From IMG/VR virus record IMGVR_UViG_2724679140_000004, positions 1 through 21,580 of that record: a stretch of 21,580 nucleotides of DNA. One strand, written 5' to 3'. Positions 13,985-15,219 of the stretch are shown piece after piece. Source of the stretch: a virus. Lineage: Duplodnaviria > Heunggongvirae > Uroviricota > Caudoviricetes. Every line of letters begins with the position of its first letter. Position 1 is the first letter of the stretch. The translations under genes and the position numbers were made by a program. Below the pieces are notes generated by a model, which had not been told where the DNA came from, did no database searches, and worked only from the letters and a program-made list of their open reading frames with translations.

Positions 13985-14167
13985 TCAGTTCTGCATACAC
14001 TGCCGGACACTATCAACAATTTCGCAGACCTGAGAAGCTGTATCGAAAAGCTGACGCGCCTTATCCAGGCTGACGCATCCCGCCAATAAAAAAGGCACCA
14101 GTATCGCTACCAGTGCCCATTTCGCCGTCGTTTGCGGCATTCTGTGTGTCCAGTGTTTTCTGCTCAT
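13985..14167 (-). CDS. Small lysis-associated lipoprotein (60 aa), possibly an o-spanin-like protein
   Basis: AGGTG upstream of the ATG at 14167. Signal peptide plus lipobox (VPFLLAGC); the short mature part contains three Cys. Lies immediately after the endolysin gene. Confidence 0.45.
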   Translation of the reverse strand: MSRKHWTHRMPQTTAKWALVAILVPFLLAGCVSLDKARQLFDTASQVCEIVDSVRQCMQN

Positions 14168-14181
14168 AACACACCTGATTA

Positions 14182-14559
14182 TCAGCGTTTCAACTGAAAG
14201 TGAGGTCCGTCTTTCAGTGTTTTCCAGTCCCCGCCCCATTCGATGGCAGTTCCCAGCTCTGCGGCAGCCTGCTTAAATGCCTGCGCGATTTTCTCGTACA
14301 GAGGCCAGTCCCATGACACCTGGCTGCCAACGTAGGCCACAACATCCACCGCATCACCGGTCAGGTGGCGGCTGTTCATGGCCTGGCTTTTCCCTTCCGC
14401 GACCAGCTGTTTCTGGCGATACTTACTGCGCAGGCCTTCCGTAATACCAAAATCAACCTCCGTAAGCTCCAGCGCACGGCGAACGACAGCAACCAGCTGT
14501 GGTTTGACGCCCTCCAGATTTTTTTCACTGCGACGGCTGAATCTGAATTTACCCGACAT
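14182..14559 (-). CDS. Endolysin, peptidase M15-like (L-alanyl-D-glutamate endopeptidase type)
   Basis: ~125 aa protein with a pattern recalled as M15 peptidase (...SRHLTGDAVDVVAY...WGGDW...). ATG at 14559 with GAGG upstream; follows two membrane protein genes. Confidence 0.7.
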   Translation of the reverse strand: MSGKFRFSRRSEKNLEGVKPQLVAVVRRALELTEVDFGITEGLRSKYRQKQLVAEGKSQAMNSRHLTGDAVDVVAYVGSQVSWDWPLYEKIAQAFKQAAAELGTAIEWGGDWKTLKDGPHFQLKR

Positions 14560-14561
14560 AT

Positions 14562-14837
14562 TCACCTCAACAATGGAAAGATTTTTGTGACGTTCCCGCG
14601 TGCGCGTATCACCAGCACGCAGAACAGCAGGTTAAAAAACACTTCCAGCCAGCCCGTTGCTAACGGGCGACCACACAGATAGCTGAGGGGCGCAAAGGCA
14701 TACAGCAGCATCAGCAGCCAGGCCAGCCATGACATCAGTGGTTTATGTCTGGAATCACGGCGACGATAAAAAAAGAGCGTCAGCACGATAACCGTGCATA
14801 ACGCCACATTCAGTAATCCGGGAAGGTTACTTAACAT
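14562..14837 (-). CDS. Membrane protein (91 aa, about three hydrophobic helices), holin or antiholin partner
   Basis: GGAGGAGG 5 nt upstream of the ATG at 14837; overlaps the upstream holin end by 11 nt and the endolysin start. Confidence 0.5.
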   Translation of the reverse strand: MLSNLPGLLNVALCTVIVLTLFFYRRRDSRHKPLMSWLAWLLMLLYAFAPLSYLCGRPLATGWLEVFFNLLFCVLVIRARGNVTKIFPLLR

Positions 14838-15219
14838 TGCCGCCTCCTCCACCCCGCAGGCGGGAGAACAGGCCGGACACCAGCGATGCAATATCCTGCT
14901 GGTGGATGAACGACAGAATCTTCACCGACACCACCGCCACCAGCACCGCACACAGTGCATCCGCAGATGTACCGTCATAACCTGTTTTTGATGCAATCCA
15001 GGCTGACAGTACACGCGCCCCCAGTACACCAACAATGAACGACACCAGAAAATGTGCCGCCACACGCCAGGCTGAAATCTTCTGCGGCATCGTTGCCACA
15101 AACAACGCCCCGGCGAACGCACCAAACACAATCCCGAAATCCGTTCCGGTAAACAGCCCGAATACCGTCGCCCCGCCGAGCGCCGCAGCCGTGCCGGAAC
15201 CGGACAAGGGTTCAGACAT
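14827..15219 (-). CDS. Putative holin (130 aa, Gly/Ala-rich hydrophobic helices)
   Basis: First gene after a terminator, followed by the endolysin gene. AGGAG 8 nt upstream of the ATG at 15219; the track ORF N-terminal extension runs through the terminator hairpin and is rejected. Confidence 0.55.
   Translation of the reverse strand: MSEPLSGSGTAAALGGATVFGLFTGTDFGIVFGAFAGALFVATMPQKISAWRVAAHFLVSFIVGVLGARVLSAWIASKTGYDGTSADALCAVLVAVVSVKILSFIHQQDIASLVSGLFSRLRGGGGGNVK

Follow-up and report, generated by a model that had tools for sequence, protein, structure and literature searches.

The closest described relative of the genes considered here is the lysis cassette of phage phiP27, in which two holin-family proteins, an M15 endolysin and a small lipoprotein are encoded in the same order as at positions 13985-15219 of IMG/VR virus record IMGVR_UViG_2724679140_000004 (Caudoviricetes), of which the whole analysed stretch of 21,580 nucleotides is referred to below as the window. 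The phiP27 lipoprotein shares 87% amino-acid identity with that of the window and has the coordinates given for the outer-membrane subunit (o-spanin) of a two-component spanin in SpaninDB (Kongari, 2018). The phiP27-type cassette and the listing of the lipoprotein orthologue as an o-spanin are therefore already known; what is new is that the inner-membrane partner (i-spanin) is lacking throughout the phiP27-type family, which contradicts the SpaninDB assignment. The 60-residue lipoprotein is encoded by a genuine gene under purifying selection and occupies the slot in which sister cassettes carry spanins. Because it is selected, is always the last cassette gene, lies in the spanin slot and has no i-spanin that could be found, a role in the outer-membrane step of lysis is its most likely one, and we tentatively regard it, at a little under an even chance, as a factor for this step that acts without a phage-encoded inner-membrane partner.

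Compared with lambda Rz/Rz1, the window lipoprotein is likewise a prolipoprotein of about 60 residues, predicted here to reach the outer membrane, that is encoded at the distal end of the lysis cassette and has periplasmic Cys residues, but the cassette has no i-spanin gene, there is no sequence similarity, and the mature part consists of 30 residues predicted to be helical instead of 40 residues rich in Pro, and would not reach across the periplasm even if joined by the partner proposed for phiP27. Colicin lysis proteins and entericidin B are very small lipoproteins (about 27-33 mature residues), each able to permeabilise or lyse the E. coli envelope unaided. They match the window lipoprotein in size and lipobox, whereas they are without its two conserved Cys residues and their Pfam families (Lysis_col, Entericidin) do not match it at E<=1. 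Unimolecular spanins of the T1 gp11 type (PMC6139136) are likewise the product of one gene at the end of a lysis cassette and carry an outer-membrane lipoprotein signal, but the window protein lacks a C-terminal transmembrane (TM) segment and has about 30 periplasmic residues, against about 100 in those spanins. The phiKT gp28 "disruptin" (bioRxiv 10.1101/515445) is a single small protein of the outer-membrane step in a spanin-less cassette, a role only proposed here for the window protein; gp28 is described as cationic and similar to antimicrobial peptides, and the disruptin type has no secretion signal, whereas the window protein is a lipoprotein that carries its signal, with a charge of about -1 and modest amphipathicity.

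Organization of the Lysis Cassette

Every gene of the window is on the minus strand, and the lysis cassette consists of four closely packed genes (15219..13985):

15219..14827, minus strand: 130-residue membrane protein (Phage_holin_8), with an AGGAG ribosome-binding site upstream of the ATG
14837..14562, minus strand: 91-residue three-helix protein (Phage_holin_3_7), with a GGAGG ribosome-binding site and an 11-nucleotide overlap with the 130-residue gene
14559..14182, minus strand: M15C endolysin, 125 residues from the ATG, with Pfam, PHROG and PDB matches
14167..13985, minus strand: 60-residue prolipoprotein with lipobox LLAG-C31, matching phrog_7528

The four genes had been outlined in a preliminary description made from the sequence alone, and its coordinates, sizes and descriptions were all borne out. 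The endolysin ATG lies 2 nucleotides past the stop codon of the 91-residue gene, an alternative GTG start at 14565 would give 127 residues, and the lipoprotein gene starts 14 nucleotides past the endolysin stop codon with a ribosome-binding site of its own. Homology identifies the region as the lysis cassette of a lambdoid E. coli prophage of the phiP27 type, probably situated in the late operon; it has 91-93% nucleotide identity to the lysis region of phiP27 (genes L28-L30) and equally to the cassettes of the UMNK88 prophage and many other E. coli prophages. The window differs from phiP27 in two respects, the 14-nucleotide endolysin-lipoprotein junction, where phiP27 has an insert of about 470 bp, and the presence of TerB and DUF3927 genes upstream, where phiP27 carries stx2e. 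The phiP27 record annotates the wrong frame, as L32, at the lipoprotein gene. The earlier view that the cassette has a non-canonical make-up holds for the missing i-spanin, which is unusual, but not for the first three genes, which are ordinary, or for the arrangement as a whole, the phiP27-type cassette having been known before.

Absence of an i-Spanin and the phiP27 Database Entry

Regarding an inner-membrane partner, none of the open reading frames (ORFs) of at least 25 residues in any frame of 13985-14565 has a TM segment, in agreement with the earlier statement that a type II membrane protein with a periplasmic coiled coil is missing from the cassette, and the search of all frames revealed no Rz/Rz1 pair embedded in or near the cassette. 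When ORFs of at least 35 residues from every start codon of the window were screened, the only ones that join an N-terminal TM segment to a hydrophilic tail were known proteins or spurious ORFs in alternative frames. In 32 distinct sequences of the endolysin gene, diversity at third codon positions was nowhere suppressed over a long stretch, so that there is no signature of an embedded gene. In a complete related prophage integrated between potB and potC (locus L010) there is neither an annotated spanin nor a candidate by the same screen, and its sole notable lipobox ORF is the lipoprotein itself; nor was an Rz-like ORF detected on the same strand within 2.6 kb of the lipoprotein gene in 95 related loci.

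phiP27 is listed in SpaninDB as having a "separated" two-component spanin, with a combined periplasmic length of 62 residues that is the shortest of 528 two-component systems and with an i-spanin that is a 64-residue ORF starting with TTG (Kongari, 2018). This ORF (2844-3038 on the minus strand of the phiP27 locus, L002) lies in the insert of about 470 bp between the endolysin and lipoprotein genes and is antisense to a 90-residue ORF (2782-3054, plus strand) that matches phrog_36812 over its full length (E 5e-20), while the listed i-spanin has no PHROG match. Only 3 of 5426 complete E. coli genomes contain the insert, and the window does not. With its TTG start, its position antisense to a better-supported ORF and its location in a rare insert that the window does not have, the ORF was rejected as the missing partner; it cannot be the general partner of the lipoprotein and is probably a mis-call, so that the two-component entry for phiP27 in SpaninDB probably needs correction.

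The Lipoprotein Is a Conserved Gene Under Purifying Selection

The lipoprotein precursor reads MSRKHWTHRMPQTTAKWALVAILVPFLLAG up to the predicted cleavage site before Cys31 and CVSLDKARQLFDTASQVCEIVDSVRQCMQN from there on. It has a basic N-terminal region, the lipobox LLAG-C31 and Val-Ser at positions +2 and +3, and because position +2 is Val and not Asp, sorting to the outer membrane is predicted. The signal peptide is the sole hydrophobic segment, and no C-terminal TM segment is present. The preliminary description of a short lipoprotein with three Cys residues, which are the lipobox Cys, Cys48 and Cys57, stands, but the mature part has 30 residues when the acylated Cys31 is counted, instead of about 29. 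G30, C31, C48 and C57 are invariant in 26 diverse homologues, and the spacing of the two later Cys residues is C-x8-C in the window protein and C-x9-C in a divergent subfamily of about 50% identity, which keeps the lipobox and both Cys residues but has one residue more in the spacing.

Among 35 distinct DNA versions of the gene, the ratio of nonsynonymous to synonymous polymorphism (pN/pS) was 0.17 in its own frame as compared to 0.78 and 2.2 in the other two frames; by region, the basic N-terminal part gave 0.155 and the mature part 0.14, the lowest value of the gene. None of 50 full-length ungapped copies, cut from about 95 loci, contains an internal stop codon. Selection on the N-terminal region, together with its conservation in divergent relatives, supports the 60-residue start (MSRKHW...). 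An 84-residue version starting inside the endolysin gene was rejected, as its N-terminal extension varies non-conservatively among homologues, and so was the phiP27 L32 reading, with a pN/pS of 0.8-2.2 in that frame.

The lipoprotein family is small and enterobacterial. The window protein matches phrog_7528 over its full length (E 3.7e-36; no function is assigned there), and 133 protein clusters from Escherichia, Salmonella and Citrobacter are 65-93% identical to it. The gene was detected in 313 of the 5426 complete E. coli genomes, at 492 sites, where PGAP labels it "hypothetical protein" or leaves it unannotated. A profile search of 1.84 billion representative proteins gave only 21 matches, 19 of which are short lipoprotein-like or fragmentary members of the same family; the other two, P0137 (331 residues, repetitive) and P0132 (220 residues), seem to be chance or partial hits. 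When one genome per species was scanned with the divergent subfamily as query, there were no hits.

Position in the Spanin Slot and Changing Partners

In the related loci whose upstream genes are on the contig, the lipoprotein gene is the last gene of the lysis cassette throughout, with changing neighbours. Downstream, it is followed either by HNH and P27-type TerS genes, as in the window, or by an unrelated 131-residue gene and a Nu1-type TerS gene, and in some relatives a KilA-N gene, a NUMOD4/HNH homing endonuclease gene or the phiP27 insert is inserted between the endolysin and lipoprotein genes. Upstream, there are three front ends. In the first, the Phage_holin_8 and Phage_holin_3_7 proteins precede the M15 endolysin with the 14-nucleotide junction (37 of 80 IMG/VR loci); in the second, the same holin pair is combined with an endolysin consisting of GH108 and PG_binding_3 in place of M15; and in the third, that of the divergent subfamily, the M15 endolysin follows either a lambda-S-type holin (Phage_holin_3_1) or a divergent Phage_holin_8/3_7 pair. 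In loci L092-L094, which have the lambda-S-type holin before the M15 endolysin, the lipoprotein keeps both Cys residues. Since the lipoprotein is kept with three different front ends, its role appears to be independent of the type of holin and endolysin, and the changing partners suggest a target in the host envelope. Its occurrence with two endolysin types and two holin types also makes it unlikely that the lipoprotein is an antiholin for one holin or an inhibitor or immunity protein for one endolysin.

Sister cassettes carry spanins in the same slot. Among more distant cassettes, those of the Klebsiella phages Seifer and ST13-OXA48phi12.2 and the E. coli phage LMessi have the same holin pair and a classical i-/o-spanin directly after the endolysin, and of two phages with close homologues of the M15 endolysin, Proteus phage Pm34 has a 151-residue Rz with embedded Rz1 and Yersinia phage 42.18 has a LysB-type Rz-like spanin. 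The Serratia chiWXYZ locus (type 10 secretion) resembles the window in that ChiX is a close homologue of the window endolysin (E 3e-42), and it shares the order of lambda-S-type holin and M15 endolysin with the relatives L092-L094; it differs in that chiX is followed by an overlapping Rz/Rz1-like pair, consisting in locus L098 of an N-terminal-TM ORF and a Pro-rich, Rz1-like lipoprotein. None of the lipoproteins of these spanin-bearing cassettes resembles the window lipoprotein, and homology to the one after chiX was rejected, the latter being Pro-rich and Rz1-like.

In the GH108 variants and some M15 variants, one or two ORFs of 44-70 residues with a short hydrophilic N-terminus and a C-terminal TM segment lie directly 5' of the lipoprotein gene. 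These ORFs have no family assignment and could be N-out inner-membrane partners of the lipoprotein; examples are at the following positions:

L022 and L050, 4826-4999: small C-terminal-TM ORF
L045, 4662-4996: small C-terminal-TM ORF
L012, 490-705: small C-terminal-TM ORF
L004, 2399-2862: small C-terminal-TM ORF fused in frame to the lipoprotein

As a separate observation on these relatives, a sequence deposited as a phage of Actinobacillus pleuropneumoniae (L003; PP818812.1, "Actinobacillus phage vB_Apl-pPE4") has about 91% nucleotide identity to an E. coli prophage over the whole lysis region, which is surprising for a Pasteurellaceae host and may reflect a phage derived from E. coli.

Proposed Role of the Lipoprotein and Alternative Explanations

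In the pathway proposed here, the Phage_holin_8 and Phage_holin_3_7 proteins would permeabilise the inner membrane at a programmed time and the released M15C endopeptidase would then cut the stem peptides of the peptidoglycan, both steps being well supported by homology. After export, the prolipoprotein would receive its lipid at Cys31 and be delivered to the inner leaflet of the outer membrane, and the two invariant Cys residues of its mature part could form disulfides on the periplasmic side. When the wall has been degraded, the lipoprotein would weaken or break the outer membrane in the absence of a phage inner-membrane (Rz-like) partner, probably acting locally in the outer membrane either as disulfide-linked oligomers or via a host envelope component. 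Such an action would have its parallels in colicin lysis proteins and entericidin B or in the phiKT disruptin. Fusion of the membranes across the periplasm as in Rz/Rz1 is unlikely because 30 mature residues are too few. An AlphaFold2 model of the lipoprotein consists of one long helix (H12-59; mean predicted local distance difference test score, pLDDT, of 67), and the mature part is also helical in the Jpred figures of the supplement to Kongari (2018). The more specific proposal that a lipid-anchored, helical 30-residue peptide with two Cys residues is a self-sufficient outer-membrane disruptor, and as such represents a further class of phage lysis factor, is possible but on balance doubtful. 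The basic N-terminal region of the signal peptide and an RNA hairpin embedded in the gene may tune the timing or dose of the lipoprotein.

Several points weigh against an outer-membrane factor that acts without a phage partner. No Pfam family matches the lipoprotein at E<=1, its similarity to the "Rz-like spanin" family phrog_6073 is not significant (E 0.14), and that to NCBIfam spanin2_1 reaches E 0.028 and 14.8 bits against a cut-off of 100. The AlphaFold2 confidence is low in the mature part (pLDDT 62-65), and the mature peptide is moderately amphipathic and not cationic (hydrophobic moment muH 0.35, net charge -1), with the net charge reaching up to +3 in divergent members. The hairpin rather than the protein may account for part of the DNA conservation of the gene. 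Under many laboratory conditions plaques form without spanins, as lambda Rz mutants show, so that the cassette could lack any outer-membrane step. The small membrane proteins of the GH108 variants could also be partners that the M15 variant obtains elsewhere.

An alternative that we consider unlikely is that the lipoprotein is the o-spanin half of a true two-component spanin whose partner is non-canonical or unlinked, such as a small N-out protein with a C-terminal TM segment, the product of a gene elsewhere in the prophage or a periplasm-spanning inner-membrane protein of the host. The phiP27 orthologue has been filed as an o-spanin, and type I (N-out) proteins with a C-terminal TM segment were not considered as i-spanins in that study (Kongari, 2018), so that the small C-terminal-TM ORFs of 57-70 residues directly upstream of the lipoprotein in GH108 variants, one of them fused to it in L004, fit this explanation, as do the two periplasmic Cys residues, which are in line with the disulfide theme of spanins. 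Against this, the window and the 37 of 80 loci with the 14-nucleotide junction have no such small ORFs, the i-spanin ORF published for phiP27 is missing from the window and from 310 of the 313 genomes that carry the lipoprotein, and the search of the window, of the complete prophage and of the 95 loci gave no ORF with an N-terminal TM segment and hydrophilic tail. In addition, a 30-residue peptide and a partner of about 35 residues would be very short for the periplasm, the phiP27 total of 62 being the minimum of the 528 systems.

Alternatively, the lipoprotein may be a moron without a function in lysis, involved for example in superinfection exclusion or receptor masking like Cor and Llp or in modulation of the envelope or virulence, in a phage family that has no outer-membrane step; this, too, is improbable. 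The lipoprotein is similar to no lysis protein family, and the region between endolysin and terminase genes is a hot spot for insertions, including KilA-N, NUMOD4/HNH, the 90-residue ORF and toxin genes. Lambdoid phages often carry lipoprotein morons near this junction, as with lambda bor. Against a moron, Cor- and Llp-type proteins track receptor-binding genes, whereas the window lipoprotein stays with the cassette while tail and packaging modules change. Its ribosome-binding site follows the endolysin stop codon within the 14-nucleotide junction, no sigma-70-like promoter was found in 13400-16400 and hence none adjoining the gene, and the terminator-like hairpin that precedes the cassette makes expression in the lysogen less likely. 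The gene has no PADLOC match and lies in the slot where sister cassettes have spanins, although about 13% of phages of Gram-negative hosts (91 of 677) have no identifiable spanin (Kongari, 2018), as this explanation would allow.

It is very improbable that the lipoprotein is a decaying o-spanin remnant that outlived its i-spanin and is kept mainly for a hairpin and U-tract separating lysis and packaging genes. The hairpin in the signal-peptide region is indeed strongly conserved with locally reduced synonymous variation, but the mature part lies outside it and shows the lowest pN/pS in the gene, internal stop codons are missing from all 50 full-length copies, and the lipobox and both Cys residues are invariant even in members of about 50% identity.

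Holin-Family Proteins and Endolysin

The 130-residue protein matches Pfam PF16931 (Phage_holin_8) over the entire profile (positions 1-121 of 121; E 6.2e-24, 84.9 bits, cut-off 26.4) and phrog_198 "holin" (E 2.8e-42); it contains 29% Gly and Ala and has three clear hydrophobic segments in addition to a weak Gly/Ala-rich one at the N-terminus. The 91-residue protein matches PF05449 (Phage_holin_3_7; positions 2-79 of 80; E 6e-22, 77.9 bits, cut-off 25.4) and phrog_217 "holin" (E 1.5e-38), and its three hydrophobic segments, basic first loop and basic C-terminal tail correspond to the layout of a textbook class I holin, the topology being a prediction. The preliminary description had set its reading against a match of both proteins to well-characterised holin families, which was found in part, in that both Pfam matches exceed the gathering score while both families are titled "putative."

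In porcine Shiga toxin-producing E. coli (STEC), a 130-residue "putative holin" encoded beside stx2e was deleted and complemented in trans and was necessary for fluoroquinolone-induced release of Stx2e (2025 study, PMC12571312). The deletion and complementation primers of that study are identical to the ends of the 130-residue gene of the window, and of the two membrane proteins this one alone has genetic support so far. A disulfide between the lipoprotein and a Cys in the periplasmic loop of the 91-residue holin was rejected as a general mechanism, because the L091 homologue has no Cys in this loop and because both Cys residues of the lipoprotein are retained next to the lambda-S-type holin of L092-L094.

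The endolysin is predicted to be a cytoplasmic L-alanyl-D-glutamate endopeptidase of family M15C, of the T5 Lys/ChiX type. As had been proposed from its sequence, it belongs with the M15 peptidases in profile comparisons, with matches to Pfam Peptidase_M15_4 (PF13539; E 2.5e-12, 47.6 bits, cut-off 25) and phrog_465 "endolysin" (E 1.1e-74) and to the structures 23ri/8q2g (E about 1e-42), Serratia ChiX (5opz; 3e-42) and the T5 endolysin (2mxz; 2e-23). The motifs SRHLTGxAVDV and DGPHFQL are conserved, and the motifs with H65, D72 and H120, which we take to be the zinc-binding residues of the M15 family, are identical to those of ChiX in the alignment. The protein has no hydrophobic segment and hence neither a signal sequence nor a signal-arrest-release domain, and it would for this reason need a hole-forming holin to reach the cell wall. 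A signal-less endolysin that requires a holin is the canonical form of holin-endolysin lysis.

RNA Hairpins, Possible Late-Operon Signals and Neighboring Genes

Besides the four genes, the lysis region contains two terminator-like hairpins and, immediately upstream, a further small membrane protein:

14118..14084, minus strand: terminator-like hairpin and U-tract within the part of the lipoprotein gene that encodes the signal peptide (folding energy, conservation)
15259..15244, minus strand: weaker terminator-like hairpin 5' of the ribosome-binding site of the first holin gene (folding energy)
15466..15314, minus strand: 50-residue two-helix DUF3927/TciB-like membrane protein (Pfam PF13064, E 2.4e-13; phrog_1470)

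The hairpin in the lipoprotein gene, GGGCACUGGUA-GCGA-UACUGGUGCCU followed by UUUUUUAUU, has an 11-bp stem, a GCGA loop and a U6 tract, with a minimum free energy of -20.8 kcal/mol including flanks (z = -4.4). It is nearly invariant over 94 loci, whereas flanking synonymous sites vary; 96% of cells are paired, the rare substitutions preserve pairing, and synonymous diversity is locally halved (pS 0.087 vs. 0.18-0.21). This hairpin may act as a terminator or attenuator that lets only Q-modified polymerase pass, or it may stabilise the mRNA at its 3' end, and it may explain part of the unusual conservation of the signal peptide. The upstream hairpin, GGGCCGCUGGUGGCCC followed by U6, is weak on its own (-11 kcal/mol, z = -1.8); the sequence GGGCCGCUGGUGGCCC also occurs in the deletion primer of PMC12571312.

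Regarding late transcription, a Q-like gene is present at 18256..19077, and downstream of it, in an ORF-poor stretch of low GC content, there is an Rfam match to the small RNA STnc100 (17437..17650, minus strand; 109 bits, above the gathering score); no tRNA genes were found in this stretch of the window, though relatives carry some there. Together, the two hairpins, the Q-like gene and STnc100 would fit a late operon that is passed only by antiterminated polymerase. A TerB-family gene and the gene of the DUF3927 protein lie within 15314-15891 (minus strand) just upstream of the cassette; they are linked to it in many but not all related loci and are absent from phiP27.

Two further features lie away from the cassette. 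A second lipoprotein gene at 4555-4926 (minus strand) in the tail module encodes 123 residues with the lipobox FISAC, matches phrog_2320 and lies in a low-GC island (about 41% GC); it looks like a moron, possibly of the exclusion type. At the edge of the window, an Rfam match to the sok antitoxin RNA was detected (21399-21573, minus strand; 115 bits, above the gathering score).

Implications for Phage Lysis and Toxin Release

For the passage of spanin-less phages through the outer membrane, phiKT gp28 is the only alternative described so far. The cassette of the window is a second spanin-less candidate, in E. coli, and comes with natural controls in the form of sister cassettes with classical spanins in the same slot. 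If the lipoprotein is indeed able to breach the outer membrane, a lipopeptide of 30 residues with this activity would be of interest for the design of agents against Gram-negative bacteria. In pig-pathogenic STEC the cassette adjoins stx2e, and release of the toxin has been linked to the first holin; any effect of the other cassette genes on the outer membrane therefore bears on the exit of Stx2e from the cell, which was left open in PMC12571312. A self-sufficient disruptor of this kind would, if the proposal is true, be used by prophages in about 6% of complete E. coli genomes, including Stx2e-converting phages.

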